A stretch of DNA of 64,000 nucleotides from Candidatus Poribacteria bacterium (lineage in GTDB: Bacteria > Poribacteria > WGA-4E > JAJDTR01). The position numbers were made by a program, and so were the translations under genes. Positions 2,969 through 37,398 of this stretch are shown in pieces. The stretch lies in NCBI GenBank assembly GCA_965222225.1, contig CBDCTK010000002.1, positions 5,056,850 to 5,120,849 on the forward strand, written 5' to 3'. The notes beneath the pieces are model-generated. The model made no database searches. It was given only the letters and a program-made list of their open reading frames with translations, and was not told the DNA's origin. The stretch's first letter is position 1. Every line of letters begins with the position of its first letter.

Positions 2969-5900
2969 GTGTTTCGGCAAGAGGCAGTTTTCAAATCGAA
3001 AGGAGAAGTTTTTTTGAATGGGAAGATTTTTTCGACACCTATTGCGCTAGCACTCTGTACAGCCCTAATATGTGTTCCTATGGCATATGCCGAAGAGAAG
3101 GAAAAACAACGGGTTCAACTGAGAGCAGGAGCGGCCTTGCACCGAATCAAATCCTATTCAGAAACCCCTGTCCGTGCACGATGGCATCGGCACCGGGGGA
3201 CAGTCCGCAGTCTTTACAATTTGGCCCTGCCTGTCCCGATAGGAACACTAGAAACATCAATGCGTCAATGCCTTGACGACTACCGTGACCTTTTTGCGAT
3301 GACCGATCCGAGCATTGAACTGCGTGTCACGGATATCCAAAGCAGCTTAACGGGCAGACATGTTCGATTCCATCAATACTACAACGGTATCGAAGTTTAT
3401 GGTGCGACAATCTCCCTCCATACCAACCGTTCTGGGCAGATACGGGTCATCCACAGCAACTACTTCCCACAAATCAATATCAGTACAGTGGCATCGCTCA
3501 CCCCGGAACAGGCGATCGGCATTGCTATTGCCGATGCCCGTGCATTTGATTTGCGCAAGCCGTCGCTTGCCAGCTTGGTAATTTTCCCGAATCGTGATGT
3601 GGGACAGATAGGTGACTATGCCGATGTGTATCGCCTCGCTTACCGCGTAAATTTACATTCCCGTCAACCTCTGGCAAGTTGGGAGTATATCATTGATGCC
3701 AACGCGGGTGAACCGTTGCACCGACGGAACCTACTTAGGTCTGCTGACGGACGGGGGCGTGTTTTTAACCCGAATCCCGTGGTAGCCCTTAAAGATTTTA
3801 TGCTCGTGGATCAGGACGATTCTGCCGACGCAATACCAGAAGCAGCGTACACGGATGTGATTCTGTCTGAGTTGGACGGGAGTGGTTTTCTTGATGGACC
3901 TTACGTGAGTACAAAATTGACCGAAAATCGTGCCAACGAGCCGACGCTGGTGTTCAACTACTTCCGAGATGACCCCCGATTTGAGGAGGTGATGGTTTAT
4001 TATCACGTAGATACAGTCGGGCGTTATGTGAAAGGGCTCGGTTTCGATTTCGTGGACAATTGGCAGATTCCTGCGAATGTACATTTTGGTATGACAAGGG
4101 CTGGTTTCTACGACGATAGCGACGGCTCGATTAATTTCGGAGATGCCGGTGTCGATGTTGCCGAAGATGCCGAAGTGATTGTCCACGAATATGGCCACGC
4201 GATCCTTGATCGACAAGTTCCTGACATTAACAAAGGAGAAGGTGGTGCGATACATGAAGGGTTTAGTGATTTTCTCGCAGCCAGTTTTTTCAGCGCCGTA
4301 AGCGATGGTTTTAGTGACACGCTCGTTTTTGAATGGACTGGTTCAGAAGACCCTGAGGTTGCCACTCGTCCCGTAAATGGTAACAAACGCTATCCCGAAG
4401 ACATTGTAGGTGACCCACACGCCGATGGGGAGATTTGGTCGGCAGCACTATGGGAGATTTTTGAGGCGATTGGACGCGATGCGTCGGTCCGTTTGGTTGT
4501 CGAGAGCCATTTCTTCCTCTCGCCCGACGCGGAATTCGTCGATGGGGCATCGGCAATTCTTATGGCGGACCAAGAACTGAATGGCGGCGTAAATTTGGAC
4601 CTCATCTTGGGGATTATGGAGAACCGGGGATTCTTTACACGCCCCAAATTGGCACTTGATGCCTTTGAGGAGAACGATACAGCGGAGACCGCAGCCATGG
4701 TCAAACTCCCGTATGTCAACGAAGAACTGTCGGTCCATACAGCGGACAATGATGATTACTATAAATTCCGTTTAGATGAGACAATGCAGGTCGGGTTTGG
4801 ACTTGATTTTCAACCCATCTACGGGGAGTTGATGCTAACATTGACGGGCCCCAATAGTATCAAGCTTGTTACCTTTGAAACGAAGGATGTCACATCGCTT
4901 GAATTAGTGCCGGGCGATTATCTCGTTACGGTTTCTGGCATTAATGGTGCAACCAACGATTATAAACTAGCACTCATCATGGACAATCACGGCGATACGC
5001 CTGACACAGCGACACCTGTGTCGATCGGCGACACGATAGAGAGTTTCATTGACTTCAACGGAGATACGGATTTCTTCGTATTTGAAGGAGAGAATGGGCA
5101 GCGCATCGACATCACTGTTACGACTAAGAACTCCGACCTTGACTCTCTGCTCGTTATCTATGGCCCAGATGGCGATCTCTTTGCTAAAAGTGACGATGTC
5201 TTGCCGACCACCGGTCCGGAGCCTGAACTTAATCCGCGTGGTATTGATTCCCGTGTGAATGAAGAGTTACCAGCCGATGGAACGTACCTGCTCGCTGTCA
5301 GCAACATTGCACTTCCCAATCTTAATGTTCCCTTCGGCGGTCTGAACTACTCTTACACGCTGACAATCGGTGGGAAAACCGATGACCATGCAGCCTGCGG
5401 TAGTGGTGAGGAAACGCCGTTGACTTTCGATGAACCTGTAACAGGTGCCATTACTCTTACCGGCGATCCTGCATCTCGTGATCCTCATGACTCGGACGGT
5501 TTCCGCTTTGAAGCGTCAGAGGGCACTGTCATTGCCCTGCGCGTTGAGGTAGAAATGCCTAAACGAGAGGTAATATTCATGGTGACCCAACTTAGTCTTT
5601 TGGATGCGTCTGGGGAAACGTTGGTATCTATTCAGGGCACTCCCAATGGCTTAGAGGTGCGGATTGATGGATTTCTCATCCCTGCCGATGGTGTGTATTG
5701 TGTTGATGTTGCCGGTTTCATAGGAGGCGCGGTCGGTTCCACTTATACCTATGCGCTGACGTTATCCGAGGGCGAACTTCCCGAAGATGACCACGAGGGC
5801 TTAAGAGGGAATCCGACTCCGTTAACGGTGGGGGAACCTGTCGAGGGAGCCATCAGTTTTGCCGGAGATGCCGATGCGTTCCAGTTTACTGCTACAGCAG

Positions 5901-7015
5901 GACAGATCATTACGTTAAAGGTGGGCGGGCAACCCGCCAATCCGTTCTTCAATTTAATTTTGAGTCTGTATAATAGCGATTTGCAGCTTGTAGCAGAGAC
6001 TCCGCTCTTTGTACCAGGTTTTGATTCAATGCTAGAAGGGATTGAAATTCCTGTGGACGGACCTTACTATGCCGAAATTAGAGATACTGCCGGGGGACGT
6101 GGGGTGGATTTTATCTACACACTGACCCTAACAATCGAAGCAGGAGACGGTACGGGTAAATTTCCCCCTTATGATGTCAACCAAGATGGCAAGGTGGACA
6201 TATTTGATCTCGTGCTTGTCGGTCAACATTTCGGCGAAGAATTTATAAACGCCGCGCCAACCGCGGATTTTGGGCGATACCGCTCGGCATCGCCCGAAGC
6301 GGAGCTGAGTCTCCTCATGACCCCAAGTGTGACGGATACACGCCAATTGACCGTCTCAATCCACACCACAGCGGTTGACGACCTTTACGGTTACCATTTC
6401 TCGATCCAGTACGATCCGGCGTTATTAGAACTCCTTACTGCCTTTCCAAGCCCCGTTTTAGATGCTGCACTACACCAAAGTTACTGGCATGTCTCCCAGC
6501 AAGGGACACAACTGGAACTCACACAGACGCGCCAGGGAACGCTGGGAGGTGTGGCGATAGAGGGGGCACTAGCTACACTCGTTTTTCATGTTAAAAAGAC
6601 GGGCCCCCCAGCATCACAACTTCCTATCCAACTCGTTGACCTCCAACTGGCGGATTCGCTGACTAGAGCTATTCCGGTGAAAATGGTTGATGAGCAAGTT
6701 TCAATGACAGAGCTATTCCCTGAACAACCGATGCTGTTGCAAAATTATCCGAACCCGTTTAACCCAGAAACATGGATTCCGTATCAACTCTCTACTGATT
6801 CAGAGGTGATGATCTCAATTTACGATACAAACGGTGCGCGTGTCCGTCGGTTCAACCTCGGTTATCAGCACGTTGGGACATACACTACTCGCGGTAGGGC
6901 GGTCTACTGGGATGGGGAAGACATGTATGGTGAGCCGATTGCAAGCGGCTTATATTTCTATCAGATTCGGGCGGGGGATTATGCTCAAGTGCGACGGATG
7001 GTAATCCTTAAATAG
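2969..7015 (+). CDS. secreted M36/M4-family zinc metallopeptidase with FTP/PepSY propeptide, PPC repeats, dockerin-like repeat, cohesin-like domain and C-terminal FlgD-Ig/T9SS-like sorting domain
   Basis: Signal peptide; GRHVRFHQYYNGIEVYG (FTP); HEYGH and HEGFSD zinc ligands; repeated DDH...GAI...D.D.F.F PPC units; DVNQDGKVDIFDLVLVGQHFGE; LLQNYPNPFNPETWIPYQL. Confidence 0.9.
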   Translation: MFRQEAVFKSKGEVFLNGKIFSTPIALALCTALICVPMAYAEEKEKQRVQLRAGAALHRIKSYSETPVRARWHRHRGTVRSLYNLALPVPIGTLETSMRQCLDDYRDLFAMTDPSIELRVTDIQSSLTGRHVRFHQYYNGIEVYGATISLHTNRSGQIRVIHSNYFPQINISTVASLTPEQAIGIAIADARAFDLRKPSLASLVIFPNRDVGQIGDYADVYRLAYRVNLHSRQPLASWEYIIDANAGEPLHRRNLLRSADGRGRVFNPNPVVALKDFMLVDQDDSADAIPEAAYTDVILSELDGSGFLDGPYVSTKLTENRANEPTLVFNYFRDDPRFEEVMVYYHVDTVGRYVKGLGFDFVDNWQIPANVHFGMTRAGFYDDSDGSINFGDAGVDVAEDAEVIVHEYGHAILDRQVPDINKGEGGAIHEGFSDFLAASFFSAVSDGFSDTLVFEWTGSEDPEVATRPVNGNKRYPEDIVGDPHADGEIWSAALWEIFEAIGRDASVRLVVESHFFLSPDAEFVDGASAILMADQELNGGVNLDLILGIMENRGFFTRPKLALDAFEENDTAETAAMVKLPYVNEELSVHTADNDDYYKFRLDETMQVGFGLDFQPIYGELMLTLTGPNSIKLVTFETKDVTSLELVPGDYLVTVSGINGATNDYKLALIMDNHGDTPDTATPVSIGDTIESFIDFNGDTDFFVFEGENGQRIDITVTTKNSDLDSLLVIYGPDGDLFAKSDDVLPTTGPEPELNPRGIDSRVNEELPADGTYLLAVSNIALPNLNVPFGGLNYSYTLTIGGKTDDHAACGSGEETPLTFDEPVTGAITLTGDPASRDPHDSDGFRFEASEGTVIALRVEVEMPKREVIFMVTQLSLLDASGETLVSIQGTPNGLEVRIDGFLIPADGVYCVDVAGFIGGAVGSTYTYALTLSEGELPEDDHEGLRGNPTPLTVGEPVEGAISFAGDADAFQFTATAGQIITLKVGGQPANPFFNLILSLYNSDLQLVAETPLFVPGFDSMLEGIEIPVDGPYYAEIRDTAGGRGVDFIYTLTLTIEAGDGTGKFPPYDVNQDGKVDIFDLVLVGQHFGEEFINAAPTADFGRYRSASPEAELSLLMTPSVTDTRQLTVSIHTTAVDDLYGYHFSIQYDPALLELLTAFPSPVLDAALHQSYWHVSQQGTQLELTQTRQGTLGGVAIEGALATLVFHVKKTGPPASQLPIQLVDLQLADSLTRAIPVKMVDEQVSMTELFPEQPMLLQNYPNPFNPETWIPYQLSTDSEVMISIYDTNGARVRRFNLGYQHVGTYTTRGRAVYWDGEDMYGEPIASGLYFYQIRAGDYAQVRRMVILK

Positions 7016-8352: not shown

Positions 8353-9204
8353 ATGGAAAATCAGAATTTTGAGCTAACCGAACAACAGATGTGTTTCTTT
8401 CGTACTTTTGGCTATCTCAGTTTCCCCGGACTGATGACTGACCGAATCGAAGAGATTGAGTGCGAGTTCGAGGCTATTTGGACAGCGCACGGGGGCGGAC
8501 ATAACGGCAAACCGCACGATGGTAAGGCTCGTTCGTGTATCGTTCCGTTTATTGACCAAAGCGAGGTGCTGTGTTCTCTGTTGGACGACCCACGTATACT
8601 TGGCATTGCATCTTCAATCTTGGGCGATGACTTTAATTATACTGGTAGCGACGGCAACTTCTACGTAGGAGAGACCGGATGGCATTCCGATGGGGCGCGA
8701 AAGCCGGAAGATCCGATGCACATCAAAATCGCGTTTTACCTCGATCCTATAACTCGTGACACCGGAGCGCTGCGTGTCATTCCGGGTAGCCATCTCTTTG
8801 GTGATGGATATGCAGACACGTTAAGCGAGCAGATTAGGAACAGTCAAGATCTATGGGGATTACACGGGCGAAATATACCGGCGGCTGTCTTAGAGACGCA
8901 ACCCGGCGACCTTGTCTTATTCAATCATAACACAAAACACGCGGCGTTTAGCGGGGGCACCCGGCGACGCATGTTCACCATGAATTTGAGTCAGCGCTAT
9001 CCGGAGAATCGGTTGGACGACCTTCGTAAACAGATGGAGAATGCCGCCCGATTTTGGATTGATCGCAAATATGGGGAGAAAATGGTGCGCACAGCCGGTC
9101 CGGAACGTATGCGACATCTGGAGCAGAACATGGCGAACGATGGGCATTTGGCAGAACTTTCTCGTCAAGCACGGGAGCGTATGAGCGAGCCGTCACGCGG
9201 ATGA
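8353..9204 (+). CDS. phytanoyl-CoA dioxygenase (PhyH) family Fe(II)/2-oxoglutarate oxygenase
   Basis: F..FGYL; GWHSDG (HxD); GALRVIPGSH; PGDLVLFNHNTKH; RBS GGAGGAG before ATG 8353. Confidence 0.85.
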   Translation: MENQNFELTEQQMCFFRTFGYLSFPGLMTDRIEEIECEFEAIWTAHGGGHNGKPHDGKARSCIVPFIDQSEVLCSLLDDPRILGIASSILGDDFNYTGSDGNFYVGETGWHSDGARKPEDPMHIKIAFYLDPITRDTGALRVIPGSHLFGDGYADTLSEQIRNSQDLWGLHGRNIPAAVLETQPGDLVLFNHNTKHAAFSGGTRRRMFTMNLSQRYPENRLDDLRKQMENAARFWIDRKYGEKMVRTAGPERMRHLEQNMANDGHLAELSRQARERMSEPSRG

Positions 9205-9317
9205 TCGCCTCGGCTTATTCTGTAGGGAGATTACCGCCCACTATGATAATCAGGGAAATCCCCTAAATGAATTGGGAAACCCGTAGACGTGCATTGGACT
9301 CTAATGGAGGACTATTC

Positions 9318-9645
9318 GAGCCTGTCTGAAAAATGGTGGCAAAGCTATTTTCGATCGTTTTAGTGCCATGTATCTGTGGGATCCCTATCGCACGGGATTT
9401 TCTATCGCGCGCGCTATTCGCTTGCTTGATCGTTATCCACTCGTTTAATCCCCGCTGGAGCTTTGATTTTGTGGTGAATCCCAGTTACTATACACCTAGC
9501 GCTCCGCTGAGGCCTAGGCGTGCAGGGGTTCGGTGCTTCTATACATCTTTGAAGATTCCATGTGCCATTTGAGGATTACCAAGGGATTTCTACTGCGCTC
9601 ACTAGAAGATCCCTATCGTGGTCGCTATTCGCTTCCTTGATCTTT
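9318..9645. repeat. MITE-like left end plus REP cluster
   Basis: GAGCCTGTCTGAA matches the TIR of the 16711 MITE; contains GGGATTTTCTATCG..GCTATTCGCT..TTGATC units (9394, 9608) and a CTATACACC..CGCTCCGCTG unit (9488-9548). Confidence 0.55.
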
Positions 9646-9699
9646 CGCTTGATTCCTGAGAATCAGGTACGGCTGCCATGCTCTAGCACCTGTTTTGTA

Positions 9700-9728
9700 T
9701 TGACAAAACCGGATGGGGAAGCTATACT
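9700..9728 (+). promoter_or_regulatory. sigma70-type promoter of the amidohydrolase cluster
   Basis: TTGACA-17 nt-TATACT, about 60 nt upstream of ATG 9787. Confidence 0.7.
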
Positions 9729-9786
9729 AAATTTATTGAACGTAGATGAAATCTGATAAAGAAATTAGCGACTGAAAGGTAACTTC

Positions 9787-10872
9787 ATGGCAACGGCAAA
9801 TGGGAAGCCGGGCTTCATTCAGGCGGGTTGGCCTGTGATTGATTGTGACCTCCACAACCGATTACCGTCACTCGAAATGCTCTACCCGTACCTGCCAGAC
9901 TACTGGGTAGATCATTGCAGGGATTCGGGCTTCTATGGGCCTGATGCAAATGATTATCCGCTTGGCGCACCGACCTCAACGCGACCCGGAATTACGGAGC
10001 CTTCAGAAGACCGCCCCGCATCAGATTTGGCTCTCCTACGCGAACATGCCCTAGACGCCTGGGACGTAGATTGTGGCATACTTACCTGCGCATATCGCGT
10101 ACAGAGCGTACACAATGAAGACCTCGCAGCAGCGCTTGCCTCTGCGGTCAATGATTGGCAGATTGAACATTGGCTAAATCCTGAGCCGCGGCTCAAGGCT
10201 TCTCTGATTGTACCGAGCCAGAATCCGGAGCTGGCAGCGCGAGAAATCGATCGGTTGGGCAATCACCCGGGCTTTGTGCAGGTGATGCTGCCGGTGCGCT
10301 CGCAGGCGCCCTACGGCAACAGACGTTACCATCCTATTTATGCCGCCGCTTGTAGGCATGACCTTGTGGTCGGCATCCATTACGGCGGCGCACCCGGTTT
10401 GCCTCCAACCTCCGTTGGTTGGCCCTCAACCTATCTGGAAGAATATGTGGGCATGTCACAGGTGTTTCAAGCGCAGGTGCTCAGTTTGGTGTCGGAGGGA
10501 GCTTTTGACCAGTTCCCCGATTTGCGCGTGGCGTTGATTGAGGGAGGCTTCACATGGATGCCGTCGCTAATGTGGCGGTTTGACAAGGACTGGCGCGGCT
10601 TGCGACGGTTGACGCCGTGGGTCAAACGACTGCCATCCGAATATATCCGTGAACACATCCGCCTGACACTCCAGCCAATTGATTCGCCTCCAACCGCGGA
10701 ACAGTTGCTTCAGATTATCGGGCAGCTCGATTCGGAGGACCTATTGATGTTCTCGACAGACTACCCTCATTGGCACTTTGACGCTCCTGAAGAGGCCTTT
10801 CCGTCGAAGATACCCAAGACATTGGCTCGCAAGATTCTATCTGAAAATGCGAGGGAATTTTACCGGCTTTGA
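9787..10872 (+). CDS. amidohydrolase_2-fold protein (divergent paralog; AibH1-like candidate)
   Basis: IDCDLH, GIHYGG, LIEGG, FSTDYPHWHFD, ENAREFY. Confidence 0.85.
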   Translation: MATANGKPGFIQAGWPVIDCDLHNRLPSLEMLYPYLPDYWVDHCRDSGFYGPDANDYPLGAPTSTRPGITEPSEDRPASDLALLREHALDAWDVDCGILTCAYRVQSVHNEDLAAALASAVNDWQIEHWLNPEPRLKASLIVPSQNPELAAREIDRLGNHPGFVQVMLPVRSQAPYGNRRYHPIYAAACRHDLVVGIHYGGAPGLPPTSVGWPSTYLEEYVGMSQVFQAQVLSLVSEGAFDQFPDLRVALIEGGFTWMPSLMWRFDKDWRGLRRLTPWVKRLPSEYIREHIRLTLQPIDSPPTAEQLLQIIGQLDSEDLLMFSTDYPHWHFDAPEEAFPSKIPKTLARKILSENAREFYRL

Positions 10873-10983
10873 AAGCACTAAAGAGAAGTGACGCCGTTGC
10901 GGTTGTTAAGGTGAATCTGGTTAAGCATCTCAAATTAGGGTTTTTGTGGTTTGTTGATTTTTTTGCTGGGCAGGTATGTGGTT

Positions 10984-11729
10984 ATGAATCAGGAATTTGA
11001 AAAGAGTCCGAAACTTCAGAAGTGGCTGCATTGGATGGAGACGATTCGTAACGAGATTTCGGGGCTCCTTCGCGACGAAAGCATGTTTTTGGAAATCCAG
11101 GACATTATCCGTGAGAATCCACGGATGCGCAAACCTAATGTTTTCTATGGCTATCTTCGAAGGACATACCTTTCTCATGCACTAGCAGGATTACGTCGGC
11201 AAATCAAACCGCATAAAGATAGCATATCCTTAGTGGGACTGCTTGAGGAGTTTGCAAAGAACCCCGAAGAATTGTCTTTTAGGTATTATTGCTCCATCCT
11301 GTCTGAACCTGCTGCCGGCCAAGGGAGTCTATGACCAAAGAAGATTTCAAACAGTATGCAGACCCTAATGAACAGCATGTATGTCCAAAGATGATTGAGG
11401 CCGATTTGGGGAGTTTCAAATTTGCAATAGGAGTTGCTGAGGAGTATGTTGATAAACGTATTGCGCATTGGGATAAGAGCGAGCCAGAACTCGTACCAAC
11501 TTCCAGCGAAACCAGCCAGTGCTTTTATTTGCTCGAAATGGCGTACGTTAAATACCATCTACTGTTTTATGCGAAAAGGCTCGACACGTTGACGCCAATC
11601 TATCAACACAACTGGAAGGATATTTTCCTTGAACCGTGGATAAAAACTGGATTTGGGAGTGCAAAAGGACGCATTCATGTAGCTGAAGATTTTGACGCTG
11701 AATTACCTGAGTTCAGTGAGGACATATAA
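10984..11729 (+). pseudogene. split/frameshifted HEPN (AbiU2-like) gene
   Basis: Two ORFs (10984-11334, 11331-11729) with ATGA overlap; LRRQ..HKDSISLVGLL in part 1 and YVDKRIAH...KY..LF...PIYQHNWKDIF.EPW in part 2 look like halves of one AbiU2-type protein. Confidence 0.45.
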
Positions 11730-11750
11730 CGACTAACAACTGCTGAGAAA

Positions 11751-12842
11751 ATGGACACTGATGCCGTACAATTGAATACAACGCCAAAACGACGAAAGTT
11801 GCCAATCATCGATTGCGATGTACATAACACCCTAGCGTCAGATAAGGTGCTGTATCCCTATTTGTCAAAGCGGTGGCTTAGACATCACGAAATGCTGGAG
11901 ACGCCCGATAAAGTCGGGGGATATATTGCTCGCGGTATGCCGTACGGCGCCCGGAACGACGCATGGCCGCCCTCCGGGGAACGTCCGGGCTCCGACTTAA
12001 ACTTTCTTCGGGAACAGTTGCTAGACCTCTGGGATATTGAGGTCGGAATCCTGAATTGTCTTACCGCCGTGCCCGACATGCCCAATCTGGAGTACGCCGC
12101 AGCGTTCGCACGGGCGGTGAATGACTGGCAGATTGATAAGTGGCTGGAACCCGAACCGCGCCTGAGGGCGTCGATTACTGTTGTCTGCGATGATGGTGAA
12201 TTGGCGGCTGAGGAAATCAACCGACTAGGCGATAACCCCGGCTTTGTGCAGGTGTTGGTACTTGCGCGTACAATGGAGCCCTTGGGGCGCCGGAAATACT
12301 GGAAGATGTATGAGGCTGCGGGAGGTCACAATCTTCCGATTGGCATCCATTTCACCGGCGTTGGAGCGGGGCCAATCACTGCTGTCGGCAGTCCTTCACA
12401 CTACATCGAAGACCATACGGGGATGACGCAGGCGTTTCAGACGCAGGTCACGAGTTTGGTGTGCGAGGGCGTTTTCGAGCACTTCCCAACGCTCAAGATT
12501 GTTTTGATTGAAGCTGGCTTTGGTTGGTTGCCGCCACTGATGTGGCGACTTGACCGCGCCTGGAAGAAGTTGAGTGATGAAGTGCCATATTTAAGGCGGT
12601 TGCCATCGGAGTATATTCATGACCATTTCTGGATGACAACGCAGCCAGTGGAGGAACCGTCCAAACAGGAGTATTTTCAGCAGTTGATCGCTAACATCAA
12701 TGCAGATGAAAAACTGATGTTTGCTACTGACTACCCGCATTGGGATTTTGATTCACCGGAGTATGCCATTCCCAAGAACCTATCGCCGGATCTAAGATGG
12801 AAAATCATGGCGGAGAATGCTCGAAACTTCTATCGCTTTTGA
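11751..12842 (+). CDS. amidohydrolase_2-fold protein (AibH2/PtmU3-like candidate)
   Basis: IDCDVH, GIHFTG, LIEAG, FATDYPHWDFD. Confidence 0.85.
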   Translation: MDTDAVQLNTTPKRRKLPIIDCDVHNTLASDKVLYPYLSKRWLRHHEMLETPDKVGGYIARGMPYGARNDAWPPSGERPGSDLNFLREQLLDLWDIEVGILNCLTAVPDMPNLEYAAAFARAVNDWQIDKWLEPEPRLRASITVVCDDGELAAEEINRLGDNPGFVQVLVLARTMEPLGRRKYWKMYEAAGGHNLPIGIHFTGVGAGPITAVGSPSHYIEDHTGMTQAFQTQVTSLVCEGVFEHFPTLKIVLIEAGFGWLPPLMWRLDRAWKKLSDEVPYLRRLPSEYIHDHFWMTTQPVEEPSKQEYFQQLIANINADEKLMFATDYPHWDFDSPEYAIPKNLSPDLRWKIMAENARNFYRF

Positions 12843-12978
12843 TGACAATTATTTCCCATAATATCAGTACATCGCTCAACATGAATTGGCACACAGAGAC
12901 CAGATTAATGAGTTACTCGGCAGAAACTTTTCTCGTTTAAGTAGGTTGATTGAAGGTTGAACCAAGGAGGACAGAAAG

Positions 12979-14067
12979 ATGGCGGCAACTGAGACACACA
13001 CGAATCCATCGGCAACCCGACGGAAAATGCCCGTAATTGATTGTGACATTCACAATGCCGTACCTTCGCACAAGGCGCTGCACCCGTATATGTCAGAGCG
13101 TTGGCGAAGGCATCTTGAAATGGTGGGGACCCCCGCTCGAAATGGCTCTTATATCCCGCGTGGCGTGCCATACGCGGCTAGAAAGGATGCCTGGCCCCCT
13201 TCCGGCAAAGCGCCCGGTTCGGACCTGAAGTTCATGCAAGATCAGCTGCTTGACCACTGGAACATCGAATATGGGGTTCTAAACTGTTTAATCTTCCAAG
13301 ATATGCGCAGCGTGGAATTCAATGCCGCGCTGTCGCGCGCAGTTAACGACTGGCAAATCGAGGAATGGATCAAGCCCGACCCAAGGCTGAGAGCGTCAAT
13401 CTTGGTTCCGTTTGAAGATGGCGACCTGGCCGCGGATGAAATTGATCGGCTTGGAGCTCACCCGGGGTTTGTGCAAGTCCTACTCGTCGCTCGCACGATG
13501 GAACCCCTTGGAAGGCGCCGCTATTGGAAGATTTACGAGGCGGCGGTGCGACATGACCTTACGATTGGGATTCACTTCGGCGGCCTCGGTGTTGGTTCAA
13601 TCACCTCTGCAGGCAAACCTTCACACTACATTGAAGACCATGCGGGGATGTGCCAAGTGTTTCAGACGCAAGTGACCAGTTTAGTGTGCGAGGGGGTCTT
13701 CGAACACTTTCCTACGCTTAAGGTGGTGCTAATCGAAGGAGGATTTGCTTGGTTGCCACCACTGATGTGGCGGCTTGAGCGCTCTTGGAAAATGCTGAGG
13801 GAGGAAGTTCCGTATTTGAAACGCTCCCCGTCAGAATATATTCGTGAGCATTTCTGGCTAAGCACGCAGCCGATGGAAGAACCACCCAAGCAGGAATATT
13901 TTCAGCAGTTGCTTGAGCATATCAACGCCGATGAAAAATTGATGTTCGCAACAGACTATCCACACTGGGACTTTGATTCGCCGGGCCATGCGCTTCCCAA
14001 GAACCTAAACCCCAATTTGAGGCGGCGAATCATGGCTGAGAATGCTCGTGCCCTGTACCAATTCTAA
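12979..14067 (+). CDS. amidohydrolase_2-fold protein, close paralog of 11751-12842
   Basis: IDCDIH, GIHFGG, LIEGG, FATDYPHWDFD; long near-identical blocks shared with the preceding gene. Confidence 0.85.
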   Translation: MAATETHTNPSATRRKMPVIDCDIHNAVPSHKALHPYMSERWRRHLEMVGTPARNGSYIPRGVPYAARKDAWPPSGKAPGSDLKFMQDQLLDHWNIEYGVLNCLIFQDMRSVEFNAALSRAVNDWQIEEWIKPDPRLRASILVPFEDGDLAADEIDRLGAHPGFVQVLLVARTMEPLGRRRYWKIYEAAVRHDLTIGIHFGGLGVGSITSAGKPSHYIEDHAGMCQVFQTQVTSLVCEGVFEHFPTLKVVLIEGGFAWLPPLMWRLERSWKMLREEVPYLKRSPSEYIREHFWLSTQPMEEPPKQEYFQQLLEHINADEKLMFATDYPHWDFDSPGHALPKNLNPNLRRRIMAENARALYQF

Positions 14068-14189
14068 ATAAATCGATGCACCAGCCCTGAATGAAAAGTG
14101 TATATATGCCGATCTGGCACGTTGATTGTCGTTATCATGGCTGAGTCGCAAAATACTAAGCTCACTGGATTACACTAATAAACGCGCTT

Positions 14190-14642
14190 ATGGCAAAGCA
14201 TGTAGTTGCAACCGTTGACGAAATCCCGCCGGGTGAACGGAAGATTGTGGAGATTGACGGGAGAGTCGTCGGCGTTTTCAACATTGACGGCGAGTTTTAT
14301 GCACTTCGCAATAATTGTCCACATACCGGAGGGCCTCTCTGTGAGGGGCATCTCACTGGATTCCTGAAGTCTGACGTGCCGGGAGAATACGAATATGTTC
14401 GAAAAGGCGAAATCTTGCGGTGTCCTTGGCATGGCTGGGAATTTGATGTCAAAACGGGGCAATCCTGGTGGAGCCCGGCGAGAAGACGTGCGCGAAAATA
14501 CAAGGTCAGTGTTGAATCAGGACCGCCCCCTTGTAGCGAGGGTGCAGATAGTGAGGGTATAACACTTGAAAAGGGGCCATACGCGGCTGAAACCTATTCC
14601 GCCTCGGTTGACGAGAAGTATGTGGTGGTAGAGATCCCCTAA
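14190..14642 (+). CDS. Rieske [2Fe-2S] ferredoxin
   Basis: CPHTGGPL and CPWHGWEF ligand motifs; no catalytic domain. Confidence 0.9.
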   Translation: MAKHVVATVDEIPPGERKIVEIDGRVVGVFNIDGEFYALRNNCPHTGGPLCEGHLTGFLKSDVPGEYEYVRKGEILRCPWHGWEFDVKTGQSWWSPARRRARKYKVSVESGPPPCSEGADSEGITLEKGPYAAETYSASVDEKYVVVEIP

Positions 14643-14950
14643 ACAGCGGAGCGCACCATTATGCGCTCAGCGCAGTTTCGTTCGCTCTTTGATGGGGTGA
14701 TAGTCGAAAAGCCAACACCTACCCCAGCGGAAAGAGATTATCAGACAGGCACCGGAGCGCAATAATCGGCGCACGCTCCGATTGTTCGGTGTTGATGATT
14801 TGCTTTTCAGTGTTTCCTACTTGTCTATAGTCATTTACATTCATATTTACACATATTGCGGTATACAGGCAAGTGAACGGCTAGTCGGACGCGAGATGAA
14901 AAGAACGGAAATGTTCGATTTGACGACAGAAGATTGTTACAACAAACCCA

Positions 14951-15110
14951 CTGTAGGAGATCAAGCGAACGAATAGTGAGTGCGATAGAGATCTTCTCGA
15001 GGTCGCGACTTCTTATCGCGAGCAGAGCTCGCTCCTACAGGAGACGCACAATAAAGGGATTTCTATCGTCCTCGCTGTTCGCTCGGTTAATCTATTCGCT
15101 CCATTGATCG
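14951..15110. repeat. GTAG-type REP / REPIN-like composite
   Basis: CTGTAGGAG (14951) / CTCCTACAG (15032-15040) inverted ends; GTAGGAGCGAGCTCTGCTCGCGA palindrome on -; GGGATTTCTATCG family copies at 14959-14993 (-) and 15056 (+). Confidence 0.7.
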
Positions 15111-15371
15111 TTCGGTTGATCGCTACTACAAACCGCACAACGTATGTCCCGATTGTATAATTCTTAGTTGCAATGACTATAATTCGTAAAAAGAGATACC
15201 GATGTAGGAAGCAATACATATGTAGGAAATTACGATTGTCATTCCCTACGAGAGCCCCAATCATAAGGTTATCCCAGAGAATTGTCACTTCTGCTTTTTG
15301 CGCAGGTCTTGTTGTAAATGCAAGGGCAGATGTCGTCTTTATACCATTGAACAGTGAGTAGGTTAGAGTCT

Positions 15372-16460
15372 ATGAAAGCTGCCGTGTTGTATGATGTCCA
15401 CACACCTTTGAAAATTGAGGAGTTTGATGCGCCTGAGGTGACTCAAGGTATGGTCGGGGTAAGATTGTGCGCTAGCGGTGTGTGTCATTCCGATTGGCAT
15501 GTCGTCAAGGGTGATTGGCCATTTATCCAGCTTCCGGTTATTCTCGGTCACGAGGGAGCGGGCATCGTTGAAGAGGTCGGCAACGGCGTGACGGGTGTCG
15601 CTGAAGGAGACCATGTTATTCTGGCTTGGAAACGGAGCTGCGGCTACTGCGAAATGTGCCAAGAGGGTTTTTCAAATCTCTGCAGCGTTGATCCGGATAA
15701 TAGCCGCCGTCCACAGTTTAAAGGGCGCGACGAAACCGTGAGCAAGTTGGCGGGATTAGGCACGTTTAGCACTTACACTGTCGTGCCTCAGGATGTGGTT
15801 GTTCCCATAGCTAAAGATTGCCCTCTAGCACAGGCAGCATTGATTGGTTGCGGCGTTATGACGGGTGTCGGCGCTGTTATCAATACGGCTAAGGTACCAC
15901 CGGGAAAATCAGTAGCCATCTTCGGCTGCGGAGGAGTGGGATTAAATTGCATTCAAGGCGCTGTCTTGGCGAATGCGGAGCCAATCATCGCTGTCGACAT
16001 TCTCGACAACAAGCTGACGATGGCAAAAGAGTTTGGAGCGACCCACACCATAAATTCGTCCAGAGAAAATCCCGTTGAGCGTATCAAGGAAATCACAGGT
16101 GGTCCCGGTGCCCACTATGCGTTCGAGGCAATCGGTCTGACAGGCAAACCGTTCTTGCAGACAATTCAGTGTACTCGACGCCGTGGTGTAACCGTCTTTA
16201 TCGGACATGCCCCTGTGGACACTCCAGTTGAGATTGATGCGCGCATATTGATGTTTGAGAAGTCCGTGATTGGCTCCTACTACGGTACAGCACGCACCCA
16301 TGTGGACTTTAATCGGCTGCTTAGCTTGTACCGAGCAGGGAAACTCAAACTGGATGAACTGGTCACGCGAACCTATCCGCTGGAGGGGATTAACGACGCT
16401 TTTGATGCCCTCGAAAAGGGAGAGGTGGCACGGAGTGTGTTAGATTTGTCGCAGGCATAA
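15372..16460 (+). CDS. Zn-dependent alcohol dehydrogenase (class III-like)
   Basis: GVCHSD, GHEG, CGYCEMC...C, GCGVMTG, GCGGVG. Confidence 0.9.
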   Translation: MKAAVLYDVHTPLKIEEFDAPEVTQGMVGVRLCASGVCHSDWHVVKGDWPFIQLPVILGHEGAGIVEEVGNGVTGVAEGDHVILAWKRSCGYCEMCQEGFSNLCSVDPDNSRRPQFKGRDETVSKLAGLGTFSTYTVVPQDVVVPIAKDCPLAQAALIGCGVMTGVGAVINTAKVPPGKSVAIFGCGGVGLNCIQGAVLANAEPIIAVDILDNKLTMAKEFGATHTINSSRENPVERIKEITGGPGAHYAFEAIGLTGKPFLQTIQCTRRRGVTVFIGHAPVDTPVEIDARILMFEKSVIGSYYGTARTHVDFNRLLSLYRAGKLKLDELVTRTYPLEGINDAFDALEKGEVARSVLDLSQA

Positions 16461-16524
16461 GGTTAAACGTTAAGTTGAATCTATTGTAGAGCTTCAGATA
16501 AACGTAGTCAATAAATTCTCCGAA

Positions 16525-16568
16525 TGGCTTGAATCCGTGCACTATGTGGGTTCAAGCCGTTTTTCTTT
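16525..16568 (+). terminator. intrinsic terminator after the ADH gene
   Basis: GGCTTGAA(T)CC...GG(G)TTCAAGCC stem followed by GTTTTTCTTT. Confidence 0.6.
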
Positions 16569-16710
16569 GCGTCAGATTTCATCAATGCTTCCGTGGGAGC
16601 ATGCAAAGATTATCAGTCAATAAAAGGGTTAAAAACGCTGTCACCCCTGTGACATTGCCATATCCCTTGGTTAGTTTTCGAAGGTTTTCCGGCACATTGA
16701 GAACCTGTAA

Positions 16711-16956
16711 GAACCTGTTTGAATAATCGATAGGAAAGCCATTTTTGGTCATTTGTGGGAAGTTCTTCCATGTCTTAATTGTTGCCTGCTACGTACCTGT
16801 CGCCCCGCTGGGGCTTAGGTGCACGGGGTTTTGGCGTTTCTATACACCTTCATGGATCTCTATCGCAGTCGCTATTCGCTCCCTTGATCCCACTCTGGGG
16901 CTTTTAGAGGCTGGTGCGCAGTGCGCACCCTACAAATGTACTTTTCAAACAGGCTC
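16711..16956. mobile_element. 246-bp non-autonomous MITE (IS5/PIF-like)
   Basis: 13-bp TIRs GAACCTGTTTGAA / TTCAAACAGGCTC (12/13 match); TAA on both flanks (16708-16710, 16957-16959); no transposase. Confidence 0.65.
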
Positions 16957-16994
16957 TAAACCTATTTTGAATTGGTGCATTACGAAGGGTATTT

Positions 16995-18146
16995 ATGCGT
17001 TATTGGAACCGTGATTTTCGTCTGTTGGCTTGTGGTGTCTTTGGCGTAGGCGCATTTTTCGGAATCCTAAATCCACTCTTTAACAACTTCATCGTAGACC
17101 AGATTGGAATCCAGCCTCATGAATTGGGCTACATGGAATCGTTGCGAGAGGTGCCCGGATTTCTCAACGCTCTCTTCACCGCTATAATCATCTACCTGGC
17201 GCCGCCCATTGTTGGCGGTTTGGCTCTGATTGTGATGGGGATTGGCATGGCAGCCTATTCTCAAGTCAACAGTTTTTCCGGAATCGTTGTTTTATCGTTC
17301 GTATGGAGCATCGGATTTCATGCGTGGTTGCCGTTGCGGTCAGCCATGACGCTCGACTATTCAACCGGCGAAGAGAAAGGAAAATGGTTTGGGCAGTTGC
17401 GGAGTGTGGAAAGTTTTGCTACGTTGGCGATGATTGGATTGTGTTTGTTCGCAACAGATCTGTTTGAATTTGGAGGGTTCTTCCAGATAGGAGGTGATAT
17501 CGTTGCTGTCGGAGGCATCGCACTGCTTTTCGCGTCTCGGCGGTTACAGACCGAGCGCGAAAACAGATTTGTACTCCGAAAAAAGTATTGGCTTTACTAC
17601 CTGCTTTCCTTACTGGATGGAAGTCGGCGACAGATTTTTACGACGTTCGCAATTTTTGCACTCGTCAAGGTGTTCGGTACCGATCGAGGCGTCATTATCA
17701 AACTCGTTCTAATCAATCAAGTGGTCGTTCTGCTCTTCTCGCCCACAATCGGCAGACTGGTGGACAAGTTGGGTGAGCGAACCATATTGAGCATTAGCTA
17801 TGTGGGATTATTCTTCGTGTTCATCGGTTACGCAACACTTAGAAACGTTACGCATCTGTATGTGCTCTACTGCATCGATAATTTCCTGTTTGTTGGTCGG
17901 ATTGCTTTTATGACCTACTTGAATAAGATTACGCCGCCGCAAGATCTCAAGCCAACGCTCGCCATGGGCGTGACCATGAATCACGTCGCGGCGGTGAGTG
18001 TTCCGCTCATCGGAGGTCTGGCGTGGGAGTCATTTGGCTATCAAATTATCTTCATTGGCGGCGCCGTTTTTACTTTGATTTCGCTAATTTGTACGCAGTG
18101 GATGCGGGCAGGAGGAGGGCCTAGGAAGTTGGATCGGTCTAAGTAA
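16995..18146 (+). CDS. MFS transporter
   Basis: About 12 hydrophobic segments; GRLVDKLGER MFS motif A in the C-terminal half. Confidence 0.85.
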   Translation: MRYWNRDFRLLACGVFGVGAFFGILNPLFNNFIVDQIGIQPHELGYMESLREVPGFLNALFTAIIIYLAPPIVGGLALIVMGIGMAAYSQVNSFSGIVVLSFVWSIGFHAWLPLRSAMTLDYSTGEEKGKWFGQLRSVESFATLAMIGLCLFATDLFEFGGFFQIGGDIVAVGGIALLFASRRLQTERENRFVLRKKYWLYYLLSLLDGSRRQIFTTFAIFALVKVFGTDRGVIIKLVLINQVVVLLFSPTIGRLVDKLGERTILSISYVGLFFVFIGYATLRNVTHLYVLYCIDNFLFVGRIAFMTYLNKITPPQDLKPTLAMGVTMNHVAAVSVPLIGGLAWESFGYQIIFIGGAVFTLISLICTQWMRAGGGPRKLDRSK

Positions 18147-25502: not shown

Positions 25503-26357
25503 TCAGGTGAAGCATTCATCAAAAAATCTTATGAAAATCTCATCATCTTTTCTGCGATTATATTTCCAGCAAGACTCCATGATATACAGTGGCAGCCACT
25601 TCTTGCTGTAGTGATGATGCGTTCCGTAGAATGACCTCTTGACACAAGCCCAAAACGACTCGATGGTGTTGGTGTGAGTTACGCCGTCCTCAGAAACATA
25701 TCTCTCTTGGTGATGGATAACATGTCTTTCGATATCTTCGTCCAGACTATTGTAAGAGCGAAATTCATCAGTCATAAGAATAGACTCATCGGGTGAGACA
25801 TTGCTAAGGATGAATTCTCTGATATTTTCACCAGATAGAACCTTCATGAATTTAGCAACCACCCGACCGCCTCTCTCGACTACGCCGATGACGGGAGATT
25901 TATTTGTGCCTCTACCTCTCTTAGATTTTGCTCTGGGTTTGCCGCCGACATAGGTTTCGTCCGCTTCAACTATCCCTTTCAGCAATTCATCACTATCACT
26001 CATTTTCTCACGGAGGCGCATTGCCATATACCAAGCGGACTTTTGATTCATGTCCAAGTCACGAGCAAGCTGACAACTCGATATGCTTTTCTTGGCATTG
26101 GAAAGAATTGAGATAGCCAAAAACCATTTCTGGAGAGGTATCTTGGTACCATGGAAGATGGTTCCTGCTGTAGCCGAAAAGCTAGATTCACAATCGTAGC
26201 AATTCCAACCAGTAGTAATGTCGTTTTTGTTCTTGCGTCCAACTTTTTCACTGCCACAGTGGATACAGCAAACACCGTCCTTCCAACGTTTTTCCTCTAT
26301 AAATCTGAGACAAGATTCTTGATTTGGAAACTCTTTCATAAGATTCAAAATGTCCAT
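25503..26357 (-). CDS. IS1595-family transposase (intact)
   Basis: CIHC/CYDC zinc ribbon; GTIFHGTKIPLQKWF; VEADETYVGG, LMTDE, HTNTIESFW, KYNRR. Confidence 0.9.
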   Translation of the reverse strand: MDILNLMKEFPNQESCLRFIEEKRWKDGVCCIHCGSEKVGRKNKNDITTGWNCYDCESSFSATAGTIFHGTKIPLQKWFLAISILSNAKKSISSCQLARDLDMNQKSAWYMAMRLREKMSDSDELLKGIVEADETYVGGKPRAKSKRGRGTNKSPVIGVVERGGRVVAKFMKVLSGENIREFILSNVSPDESILMTDEFRSYNSLDEDIERHVIHHQERYVSEDGVTHTNTIESFWACVKRSFYGTHHHYSKKWLPLYIMESCWKYNRRKDDEIFIRFFDECFT

Positions 26358-36288: not shown

Positions 36289-37398
36289 TTATTGCGATTT
36301 TCCCCTTGCAGCGATTTCCCAAACCGATTCGACTATACCGTTTCGGACGCCGTAGTAACGGTCATGGAGGTTGACTGTGGTACAGCAGTGACTCGGCAAG
36401 ATTTCAACCTTATCCCCGGGCTTGAGGTCAACGCTTGGTTCGGCGTCCATTGTGCCATGTTCCTCTGACAAACCACGCATCTCTAGTCCTTCAGCGAGTG
36501 GTTGAGGTATCCCAAACTCTTTTGTTAGCACCTTCATCCCCGAATCGACTATGACCCGCGTAGGCTCCGGGCGGCTTACGACAGTCGTTAACAATGTCAG
36601 TGAACATGGAAACCGTTCTCCTACCCCTTCAACATTGTGGTACGTGCTATCCATGAACACATAAGATCCTGCCTGTATCTCCGTCATTTCAGGGTAAGAT
36701 CCGGTAATTGCGTGTGTACCCGTTCCGCCGCCGCTCATGATTCCCACGGCAATTCCGTTATCTTCAAGGAAATGCTTGGTGTCAATCAGGAGCTCAACAG
36801 CTTTTCCGGTCTCGATTTTCCGTTCGATCAGGTCCGGCCTAGCAACCGTGTGTCCTTCATACCCCATCAATCCCTCAAACTTGAGCCCTTTCGATTTTAG
36901 AATGTGCTGTGCGAGAGTCAATGTCGGCTCTCCGGGCATGGCACCGCAGCGCCCCATTCCAGTGCTGACCTCAATCAATACGCGGAGCGTCACGCCTTTC
37001 GCTTCCGCGGCGGCGGAAAGTTGATCGACGTTATCCGCGTCATCAACGGCAACCATAATTTCCGAGTTCTTGGCAAGGTTGATCAATCGAGCAATTTTCT
37101 GACTTCCGACCACTTGGTTGGCGATGAGCACATCGCGGATTCCAGCGTGTACCATGGCTTCAGCCTCGCCAAGTTTGGCGCAGGTAATGCCGATTGCTCC
37201 GGCTTCAAGCTGCTTGTTTGCGATGATTGGGGTTTTGTGCGTTTTTGCGTGCGGGCGCAGTTCTGCGTTGACAGTCTTGAAAAAGTCCGCCATCGTCCGG
37301 ATATTGGCTTCGAAAACATCCAAATCAATGAGCAAGGCGGGTGTGTCGATTTCTTCCTTGGGAATACCTATGAAAACATCAGGGTGTGCCTCGGACAT
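36289..37398 (-). CDS. DSD1-family PLP-dependent enzyme (D-threonine aldolase / D-serine dehydratase-like)
   Basis: IDTPALLID, LRPHAKTHK, GLMGYEGH, GGGTGT, EIQAGSYVFMD, SEEHG, PSHCCTTVNLH. Confidence 0.9.
   Translation of the reverse strand: MSEAHPDVFIGIPKEEIDTPALLIDLDVFEANIRTMADFFKTVNAELRPHAKTHKTPIIANKQLEAGAIGITCAKLGEAEAMVHAGIRDVLIANQVVGSQKIARLINLAKNSEIMVAVDDADNVDQLSAAAEAKGVTLRVLIEVSTGMGRCGAMPGEPTLTLAQHILKSKGLKFEGLMGYEGHTVARPDLIERKIETGKAVELLIDTKHFLEDNGIAVGIMSGGGTGTHAITGSYPEMTEIQAGSYVFMDSTYHNVEGVGERFPCSLTLLTTVVSRPEPTRVIVDSGMKVLTKEFGIPQPLAEGLEMRGLSEEHGTMDAEPSVDLKPGDKVEILPSHCCTTVNLHDRYYGVRNGIVESVWEIAARGKSQ

Follow-up and report, generated by a model that had tools for sequence, protein, structure and literature searches.

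What do three genes of the amidohydrolase fold do beside a gene for a Rieske ferredoxin? The question is raised by a cluster in a 64,000-nucleotide stretch of DNA (hereafter the window; assembly GCA_965222225.1, contig CBDCTK010000002.1, positions 5,056,850 to 5,120,849) from a Candidatus Poribacteria sponge symbiont. A first-pass annotation, made from the letters alone, had proposed oxygenase-type subunits of the AibH1H2/PtmU3 kind rather than a hydrolase. Our observations on homology, motifs, clade membership, synteny and transcription lead to the same type of enzyme. Thus, with a probability of roughly 0.72, the cluster encodes both the oxygenase part and the ferredoxin of a multicomponent monooxygenase of the AibH1H2G type. 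The four genes concerned are as follows.

9787–10872, plus strand: P1, AibH1-type helper (alpha') subunit, 361 amino acids (PF04909, E 9e-41)
11751–12842, plus strand: P2, AibH2-type catalytic (alpha) subunit, 363 amino acids (PF04909, E 1e-42)
12979–14067, plus strand: P3, second AibH2-type catalytic subunit and old paralogue of P2, 362 amino acids (PF04909, E 9e-42)
14190–14642, plus strand: stand-alone Rieske [2Fe-2S] ferredoxin, counterpart of AibG/SfbR, 150 amino acids (PF00355, E 3e-17)

Family membership of P1, P2 and P3

The closest solved homologues of the three proteins belong to the amidohydrolase-related dinuclear oxygenases (AROs). Compared with all PDB sequences, P1 matched SfbO (8SM6) with an E-value of 8.6e-89, the candidate AROs 8SM7-9 with 1e-72 to 1e-88, AibH1 with 1.3e-70 and AibH2 with ~1e-70; the top match of P2 was AibH2 (1.5e-89). 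Over all three proteins, the matches to the solved AROs (AibH1/AibH2, SfbO) span 1e-70 to 1e-89. The first-pass annotation had named a grouping with LigW/ACMSD as the result that would speak against it. This grouping was not found, since LigW, ACMSD and the resorcylate decarboxylases reach only ~1e-10 to 1e-17 in the same ranking. Folds were compared using an AlphaFold model of P1 (predicted local distance difference test score, pLDDT, 83; predicted template modelling score, pTM, 0.86). The best template modelling (TM) scores were those of the AibH1 chains (0.88/0.91), with SfbO at 0.85/0.87; as a group, the AROs were retrieved at E 1e-32 with TM-scores of 0.85–0.91, and the decarboxylases at E 1e-15 with 0.63–0.70.

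Within the TIM-barrel fold of PF04909, which P1, P2 and P3 all have, Liu et al. define AROs by an N-terminal D-x-H and a C-terminal D-x-P-H-x-[D/E] motif, both of which are absent from every characterised hydrolase or decarboxylase of the fold (PMC13154177). Translation and the PF04909 matches verified the three amidohydrolase_2 genes and the motifs that had been quoted for them. The N-terminal motif reads DCDLH in P1 (D21/H23), DCDVH in P2 (D23/H25) and DCDIH in P3 (D23/H25). GIH is present in all three, followed by IEGG, IEAG and IEGG, respectively, and alignment to H211/E265 of AibH2 gives the remaining ligands of metal site 1 as H198/E252 (P1), H200/E254 (P2) and H199/E253 (P3). In P2 and P3, the C-terminal motif stands after ~200 or more residues and reads DYPHWD (P2, residues 327–332, nucleotides 12729–12746; P3, residues 326–331, nucleotides 13954–13971). 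The full dinuclear ligand sets are D23, H25, H200, E254, D327, H330 and D332 in P2, and D23, H25, H199, E253, D326, H329 and D331 in P3. In AibH2, the cofactor residues are D25, H27, H211, E265, D337, H340 and D342 (PMC10401708, PMC12141560); all seven are identical in P2 and P3 in the alignment. Judged by these residues, both proteins are caught by the motif filter of the published ARO surveys.

The fourth gene encodes the stand-alone Rieske ferredoxin that had been recognized earlier. Its ligand motifs are C43-P-H45 ... C78-P-W-H81 (CPH...CPWH), and its nearest solved relatives are Rieske ferredoxins of dioxygenases, such as BphF.

Could P1–P3 nevertheless be ordinary, non-redox PF04909 enzymes, i.e. 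LigW/ACMSD-type decarboxylases, hydratases or lactonases, with the Rieske gene as an unrelated neighbour? Their source-database annotation is indeed 'amidohydrolase', PF04909 is their sole Pfam match, and no NCBIfam model names any of them. However, the decarboxylases lie 55 to 80 orders of magnitude below the oxygenases in E-value and well below them in the fold comparison, the D-x-H and D-x-P-H-x-D motifs are foreign to the characterised hydrolases and decarboxylases, and, among the matches listed, dozens of unrelated genomes have a Rieske gene after that for the alpha subunit. Sequence ranking, fold ranking and motifs together led us to reject a LigW/ACMSD decarboxylase identity; the broader non-redox reading is already disfavoured, and we would be greatly surprised if it were true. 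The PDB ranking, the ARO motifs, the fold comparison, the adjoining Rieske gene and the phylogeny described below favour, as had been proposed, oxygenase-type subunits over a hydrolase, and that P1–P3 are oxygenase subunits of the AibH1H2 kind is a strong prediction from their sequences.

Predicted helper and catalytic subunits

The three proteins are not equivalent. P1 keeps D21, H23, H198, E252, D325 and H328, but reads DYPHWH (nucleotides 10759–10776), placing His330 where catalytic AROs have Asp/Glu, and the C-terminal motif D-x-P-H-x-[D/E] is therefore lacking. An acidic residue at this position was found in 0/80 Poribacteria orthologues; among the 120 closest database relatives of P1, none of the 119 with a clear motif has one (the remaining relative scanned as DAPHDS), the residue being mostly His, then Gln. 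Because the acidic residue is missing in P1, and likewise in its orthologues and relatives, P1 was not filed as a catalytic ARO. AibH1 offers a precedent: it keeps the loop histidine, lacks the acidic residue, and is mononuclear and non-catalytic (Hibi et al., PMC7782822). In the HMMER alignment, its loop reads DYPHKH, with the same histidine as in the DYPHWH of P1.

A neighbour-joining tree was calculated from 127 sequences (non-redundant at ~88% identity, 360 columns, Kimura-corrected distances, 100 bootstraps), for which the PDB sequences were transcribed from HMMER alignments. It contains an alpha' clade of 55 sequences, including P1 and AibH1, none of them acidic (bootstrap 95), and an alpha clade of 56 sequences, including P2, P3 and AibH2, all of which have Asp at position III and in which the seven cofactor residues of AibH2 are 100% conserved. 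The homomeric AROs fall outside both clades. The reading of the cluster as one divergent plus two further subunits, put forward in the first-pass annotation, is thus supported, with P1 in the clade of the helper AibH1, and P2 and P3 in the clade of the catalytic AibH2.

The two clades appear to have diverged in concert. In a mirror-tree comparison of 42 adjacent pairs, the alpha' and alpha distances correlated with r = 0.856, the largest r among 999 permutations being 0.384; this co-divergence of sequences provides indirect support for a heterotetramer. In the known enzyme, K282 of AibH1 is reported to hydrogen-bond D342 of AibH2 at the dimer interface (PMC12141560; the K282/Y287 numbering of that paper fits the 6M2I chain with an offset of 12, not the numbering of Hibi et al.). 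The equivalent of K282 in P1 is Lys267; this Lys is shared by all 55 alpha' sequences, and the position varies in the alpha clade. Four more clade-discriminating columns all agree with the placement of P1 in the alpha' clade. The position of AibH1 Y287 is not conserved there, being Leu in 48/55 sequences. The GIH histidine is lost in 15/55 alpha' sequences, and position III varies, being H, Q, N, C or W; the loss of the histidine would fit a metal site that has given up its catalytic role.

Regarding the catalytic subunits, the low-potential, Mn-using class of AROs is characterised by a hydrophobic gamma1, a hydrophilic gamma2 and an aromatic gamma4 (PMC13154177, Table 1). P2 and P3 carry this signature, with gamma1/2/4 being V/N/W and I/N/W, respectively, where gamma2 was placed by alignment to Thr108 of SfbO, itself deduced from the description in the paper, which makes the mapping a deduced one. 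By the published rule, the cofactor of P2 and P3 should be of the low-potential Mn/Fe kind. In addition, gamma5, the proposed docking residue for the Rieske ferredoxin, is Phe in both.

P2 and P3 had been taken for recent duplicates. This part of the first-pass annotation did not hold: the two share 68% identity as proteins and 70% as DNA, the P2 orthologues sampled from Poribacteria all group together to the exclusion of P3, and the joint P2 and P3 clade has a bootstrap of 100. Being only 68% identical and with P3 sister to all Poribacteria P2 orthologues, they stem from an old duplication. Orthologues of P3 (90–93% identity) were found solely at six of the seven loci closest to the window (L001–L004, L006 and L007).

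As for the substrate, the two specificities that the first-pass annotation had thought possible found no support, P2 and P3 being identical at the five mapped positions lining the anion pocket of SfbO. The sulfonate-binding Arg232/Arg235 of SfbO are His/Met in P2 and P3 (and Tyr/Met in P1), which leaves an SfbO-like sulfonate substrate unsupported. The position of SfbO Asn67 is occupied by Arg/Lys in P2, P3 and most of the alpha clade, which may be taken as a hint, but only a hint, of an anionic substrate.

Drawing on AibH1H2 and SfbO for the metals, complex formation, electron path and chemistry, we infer the following mode of action. P2 and P3 would be alternative catalytic subunits, each with a dinuclear metal cofactor in its TIM barrel. 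Site 1 would consist of the D-x-H Asp and His together with the GIH His and a bridging Glu from IE(G/A)G; the ligands of site 2 would be the bridging Asp and the D-Y-P-H His, and the next Asp would hold a metal-bound water. P1, predicted to contain one structural metal, would act as the helper and join a catalytic subunit to form an (alpha alpha')2 tetramer, in which its invariant Lys would touch the metal-site loop of the catalytic subunit. The Rieske ferredoxin would dock at the exposed aromatic residue beside this loop (Phe333 in P2, Phe332 in P3) and deliver two electrons per turnover, passed from NAD(P)H through a reductase encoded elsewhere and the ferredoxin to the Mn/Fe site of P2 or P3. 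There, O2 would be activated and a C–H bond of a small polar substrate hydroxylated. The major facilitator superfamily (MFS) transporter encoded downstream probably imports the substrate, and the medium-chain dehydrogenase/reductase (MDR) enzyme probably oxidises the resulting alcohol or, should the reaction be a dealkylation, the aldehyde set free by it. The surrounding features are listed below.

8317/8353–9204, plus strand: PhyH-family Fe(II)/2-oxoglutarate dioxygenase (PF05721, E 6e-14; 8353 is the start given by the gene caller)
9700–9728, plus strand: sigma-70-type promoter-like site, TTGACA-17 nucleotides-TATACT, with 11/12 consensus matches
10984–11334 and 11331–11729, plus strand: insert, HEPN_AbiU2-like gene with a DUF2281/VapB-like tail, split into open reading frames of 116 and 132 amino acids that overlap by 4 nucleotides
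14661–14762, plus strand: remnant of a second MDR dehydrogenase gene, 34 codons (tblastn)
15354/15372–16460, plus strand: zinc MDR alcohol dehydrogenase (PF08240 and PF00107)
16995–18146, plus strand: MFS transporter (PF07690, E 1.6e-25)

Linkage of the genes across genomes and their transcription

Orthologues of P1 with 79–95% identity were found in ~80 Poribacteria assemblies. With P2 as the query, at least 80 loci were retrieved, most of which have a helper-type gene directly upstream of a catalytic-type gene, and then a Rieske gene. Among the matches listed, such alpha'-alpha-Rieske loci occur in Chloroflexota, Actinomycetota (Pseudonocardia, Kribbella), Alphaproteobacteria (Bradyrhizobium, Acetobacteraceae), Gemmatimonadota, Acidobacteriota, Dormibacterota, Verrucomicrobiota and Poribacteria, which suggests that, across many phyla, the AibH2 branch commonly takes the form of a helper-catalytic-Rieske triad. 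These neighbourhoods agree with Powell et al., who gave co-occurrence figures of 90% for Rieske proteins and 40% for permeases.

Several oxygenases per Rieske gene were also seen in other phyla (L100, L107–L113 and L141, among the matches listed). L100 has two helper-catalytic pairs in tandem and one Rieske gene, and L107–L113 have a helper-catalytic pair plus an SfbO-like ARO for one Rieske gene. A pair plus an SfbO-like ARO reading DFPHFD was seen in sponge-associated Caldilineaceae.

In Poribacteria, linkage was counted at the 68 loci with enough downstream sequence. The arrangement found in the window, a helper with two catalytic genes and a Rieske gene, is present at six of these, all from the lineage of the window, and the self-contained cluster is thus a feature of that lineage. 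One further locus (1/68) has a second, Gln-type triad. In two complete Poribacteria genomes, among the matches listed, the P2 orthologue lies megabases away from P1, and a separate triad (Gln helper, catalytic and Rieske genes) lies elsewhere; the observation of unlinked P2 and of the Gln-type triad comes from L084, L086, L087 and L098.

All genes of the cluster are contained in metatranscriptome assemblies from three studies. One metatranscriptome contig of 2341 nucleotides corresponds to 12393–14733, i.e. the 3' half of P2, P3 and the Rieske gene, which starts 122 bp after P3, and supports the co-transcription of these three genes. A consensus promoter had been noted upstream of P1, and the TTGACA-17-TATACT site at 9700–9728 was confirmed as the best-scoring one in 9100–17100. 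Its -35 hexamer is invariant in the seven closest loci (L001–L007), where the -10 hexamer is TATGCT or TATACT. Terminator-like hairpins follow the Rieske gene (14662–14674, weak) and the dehydrogenase gene (16522–16562, strong). In all three independent studies, RNA-derived contigs stop matching at 9758, and their upstream ~31 letters resemble 16927–16957 before the MFS gene (CCCTACAAATGTACTTTTCAAACAGGCTC); this break reflects either a strain variant of the leader or an assembly joint induced by repeats.

The first-pass annotation had described three genes in a row. All three lie at the positions it gave, but they are not contiguous, the 878-bp gap between P1 and P2 having been overlooked. The open reading frames in this gap have a low GC content (0.42–0.45 vs 0.52–0.55 in the neighbouring genes). 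The gene, frameshifted here, is intact in relatives at 247–303 amino acids (251–303 in L081, a sister strain, at 11198–11953, L002 at 11493–12311, L003 and L031). Its matches to PF18734 (HEPN_AbiU2) are consistent but sub-threshold (E 5e-4 to 0.18), and a PADLOC search gave no match for it. Between strains with identical flanks, the body of the gene is ~80% identical; it occurs in tandem in L001, and in many Poribacteria it stands right after P1 or right before P2. Among its 443 homologues, the sole named one, as well as every genome locus carrying the gene, is from Poribacteria. One RNA-derived contig skips 11047–11734, which means that the insert is polymorphic in nature. We read the insert as a fast-evolving, putative defence- or toxin-antitoxin-like gene outside the oxygenase. 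An accessory protein of the oxygenase was judged unlikely, given the low GC content, the frameshifts, the tandem copies, the hypervariability between identical flanks and the AbiU2/DUF2281 affinities.

A number of observations count against a monooxygenase of this composition. First, the alpha clade as a whole has a bootstrap of 31, i.e. weak support. Second, P1 retains six ligands as well as an aromatic gamma4 and gamma5, so a second metal site would be possible on its sequence. Third, P1 and P2 are split by a foreign gene. The RNA evidence consists of assembled contigs, for which DNA carry-over is possible, and contig depth is lower over the inserted gene; owing to the foreign gene and the drop in depth there, a single P1-P2-P3-Rieske operon is not proven. 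Fourth, a helper and one catalytic gene (-3 to 9,230 bp apart) without a Rieske gene are found at 33 of the 68 Poribacteria loci, and P1 without an alpha subunit or Rieske gene within 10 kb at another 28 (L009–L030 and others). With P1 alone at 28/68 loci and the Rieske gene missing from 33/68, an obligate pairing is not reflected in the linkage. Fifth, no FNR-type, Fer2-reductase or Pyr_redox domain was found by Pfam scans covering ~1–38.4 and 41.6–62.4 kb of the 64-kb window, as the first-pass annotation had stated for reductases. An AibF-type ferredoxin:NAD+ reductase is thus not part of the cluster. Nor was a reductase found beside the triads inspected in two cultured examples, Bradyrhizobium and Kribbella, which have transporters nearby.

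In a rival reading, P1 would be an enzyme in its own right, either an oxygenase of a variant D-x-P-H-x-His type, with the second metal bound or positioned by His330, or a mononuclear enzyme with another reaction, its adjacency to P2 and P3 reflecting a shared pathway. All six ligands, the Trp at gamma4 and the Phe at gamma5, the ferredoxin-docking position, are present in P1, which is held at 79–95% identity across ~80 Poribacteria species and stands alone at 28 loci (with unrelated neighbours at the one inspected). Furthermore, by score its top PDB match is a homomeric oxygenase, SfbO, and the role of AibH1 itself is still termed elusive in the literature. However, AibH1 has the same histidine and is mononuclear in crystals; the metal site of the alpha' clade is under relaxed constraint, as seen from the lost GIH histidine (15/55) and the drifting position III; the interface Lys is invariant. 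In addition, alpha' is almost always directly upstream of alpha across phyla (among the matches listed), and the two co-diverge. We therefore regard an independent enzymatic role of P1 as unlikely.

Conversely, P2 and P3 might act as SfbO-like homotetramers, or as a P2/P3 heteromer, with P1 as a leftover neighbour. Homomeric AROs are known (SfbO, 8SM7, 8SM8 and 8SM9), AibH1-like partners are not always needed (Powell et al.), P2 orthologues stand alone, megabases from P1, in the two complete genomes mentioned above (among the matches listed), and a foreign gene sits between P1 and P2. Yet members of the AibH2 clade, including P2 and P3, are nearly always preceded by an alpha' gene, and the homomeric AROs group separately (among the matches listed); AibH2 without AibH1 is inactive in vivo (Hibi et al., PMC7782822); and P1 is intact and transcribed. 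Catalysis by P2 and P3 without P1 is, in our judgement, quite improbable.

As the helper of P2 and P3, P1 could be a scaffold on which two alternative catalytic subunits, or in trans several, are assembled in turn, with one Rieske ferredoxin feeding hydroxylases of different specificity, and the AibH1-like helper clade (D-x-P-H-x-His/Gln) could be a widespread partner that co-evolves with a whole branch of the Mn/Fe oxygenases. The motif filter published for AROs leaves this clade out, and in Poribacteria the helper is kept even when no catalytic gene is linked to it. We put this proposal forward as a tentative possibility, with the odds against it.

Comparison with known systems and neighbouring genes

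The nearest known system is AibH1H2/AibG/AibF, the 2-aminoisobutyrate (Aib) monooxygenase of Rhodococcus wratislaviensis (PDB 6M1W, 8FUL-8FUO; PMC7782822, PMC10401708). The two systems have in common a D-Y-P-H-x-His helper and a D-Y-P-H-x-Asp catalytic subunit (both PF04909), identical cofactor ligands, the gene order helper-catalytic-Rieske, and a dehydrogenase and a permease in the neighbourhood. Several differences exist. The present cluster has two catalytic paralogues instead of one, has no AibF-type reductase nearby, and has a HEPN-like foreign gene lying between helper and catalytic genes; P1 shares 49% identity with P2, compared with 28% between AibH1 and AibH2; and, unlike Rhodococcus, the host is an uncultivated sponge symbiont. 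Moreover, aibC, aibE, aibA and the LysR regulator are absent here. Because these other genes of the aib pathway are absent, it is very unlikely that the substrate could be established as Aib.

Two further groups of AROs are informative. SfbO/SfbR of Litorilinea aerophila and the 'TruffO' proteins (PDB 8SM6-8SM9; PMC10811679, PMC13154177) share with the present cluster the low-potential (Mn-capable) class, with a hydrophobic gamma1, hydrophilic gamma2 and Trp at gamma4, and an adjoining Rieske ferredoxin, whose predicted docking site has an aromatic gamma5. Unlike the system proposed here, SfbO is a homotetramer without a helper subunit, and SfbO-type proteins lie outside the alpha and alpha' clades. 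The high-potential diiron AROs PtmU3 and DitZ (PDB 6OMP, 8UYR) have the same fold and dinuclear ligand framework but are distant from P1 and P2 (E 1e-9 to 1e-14, ~20% identity). They differ from P2 and P3 in the hydrophilic gamma1, in a Glu directly bound to site 2 (PtmU3) and, as a rule, in having no Rieske partner. LigW, ACMSD and the gamma-resorcylate decarboxylases share the amidohydrolase_2 TIM barrel, but have one metal or none, another N-terminal motif and no D-x-P-H-x-D/E loop.

Papers of 2021–2026 (PMC7782822, PMC10401708, PMC10811679, PMC13154177) have described the ARO family, its association with Rieske proteins and the motifs that define it, and the idea that a PF04909 gene beside a Rieske gene indicates an oxygenase is already in print. 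A search of the accessible literature found no paper linking Poribacteria with these genes. What is added here is modest, namely two catalytic paralogues beside one helper, and evidence for a widespread, co-evolving helper clade; a specialist is likely to be interested, not surprised. Nevertheless, AROs are among the very few families shown to hydroxylate unactivated C–H bonds with a manganese-containing cofactor, and only a handful have a known substrate. The present cluster contributes a case that is conserved and expressed, from an uncultivated phylum of sponge symbionts, and its two catalytic paralogues with one helper constitute a natural test of the role of the enigmatic AibH1-type subunit. 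The literature consulted treats the helper as a peculiarity of AibH1H2, and the 2026 motif definition would leave helpers uncounted. With respect to sponge symbiosis, the cluster may point to the oxidative breakdown of a small polar metabolite.

The neighbours were largely as annotated before, with Pfam matches confirming the PhyH gene upstream and the MFS transporter downstream. The PhyH gene, separated from P1 by a 582-bp spacer with the promoter-like site at its end, is a conserved neighbour in the lineage of the window, being found upstream of P1 with 85–89% identity in L001–L005 and L007. The downstream enzyme had been called a class III-like alcohol dehydrogenase. It is a zinc MDR alcohol dehydrogenase, but class III is too specific, since 15372–16460 has equal PDB scores for class I and class III enzymes; its best NCBIfam match is the N,N-dimethyl-4-nitrosoaniline (NDMA)-dependent alcohol dehydrogenase subfamily TIGR03989 (355 bits, below the cut-off of 440). 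This gene is conserved at 91–93% identity in L002–L004, L006 and L007, is spaced 711 bp from the Rieske gene, and is probably a separate transcription unit. Within that spacer, the remnant at 14661–14762 is 62% identical (tblastn) to residues 1–34 of the L002 protein, a second MDR dehydrogenase with ADH_N and ADH_zinc_N domains that is intact directly after the Rieske gene in L002, L003 and L007. The MFS transporter is conserved in L002–L004 and L006, and orthologues with 52–55% identity adjoin ARO and Rieske pairs in two loci (L144 and L149, among the matches listed) of the sponge-associated phyla Latescibacterota/Gemmatimonadota, making it a candidate importer of the substrate.

A repeat of 31–35 nucleotides, TCTATCG..CGCTATTCGCT..CTTGATC, occurs at 9401–9431, 9612–9642, 14959–14989 (minus strand), 15058–15092 and 16859–16889. 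These five copies lie in the spacers before P1, the dehydrogenase gene and the MFS gene; the rest of the 64 kb has none, and chance would predict 0. An operator common to the three units was rejected, as the close relatives L003, L006 and L007 lack the repeat in the corresponding spacers. Because metatranscriptome contig depth is very high at the repeat and many assembly joints fall there, it is probably a multi-copy, species-specific element resembling repetitive extragenic palindromes or miniature inverted-repeat transposable elements.

Other genes of the region deserve brief mention. About 20 kb away, at 36289–37398 on the minus strand, lies a gene for a D-serine dehydratase-like protein (Ala_racemase_N and D-ser_dehydrat domains), with no linkage to the cluster shown. 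The Aib pathway yields a D-serine analogue. Just upstream of the cluster (2969–7015, plus strand), a secreted protein of 1348 amino acids is encoded, with FTP and peptidase M36 (fungalysin) domains and PPC repeats, which ends in a FlgD_ig tail resembling the C-terminal sorting tails of the type IX secretion system (T9SS). An IS1595-family transposase gene is present at 25503–26357 on the minus strand, and in the sister strain (L081, 15537–16289) a DDE_Tnp_1 insertion sequence lies between the Rieske and dehydrogenase genes. The region of the cluster is structurally fluid among strains.

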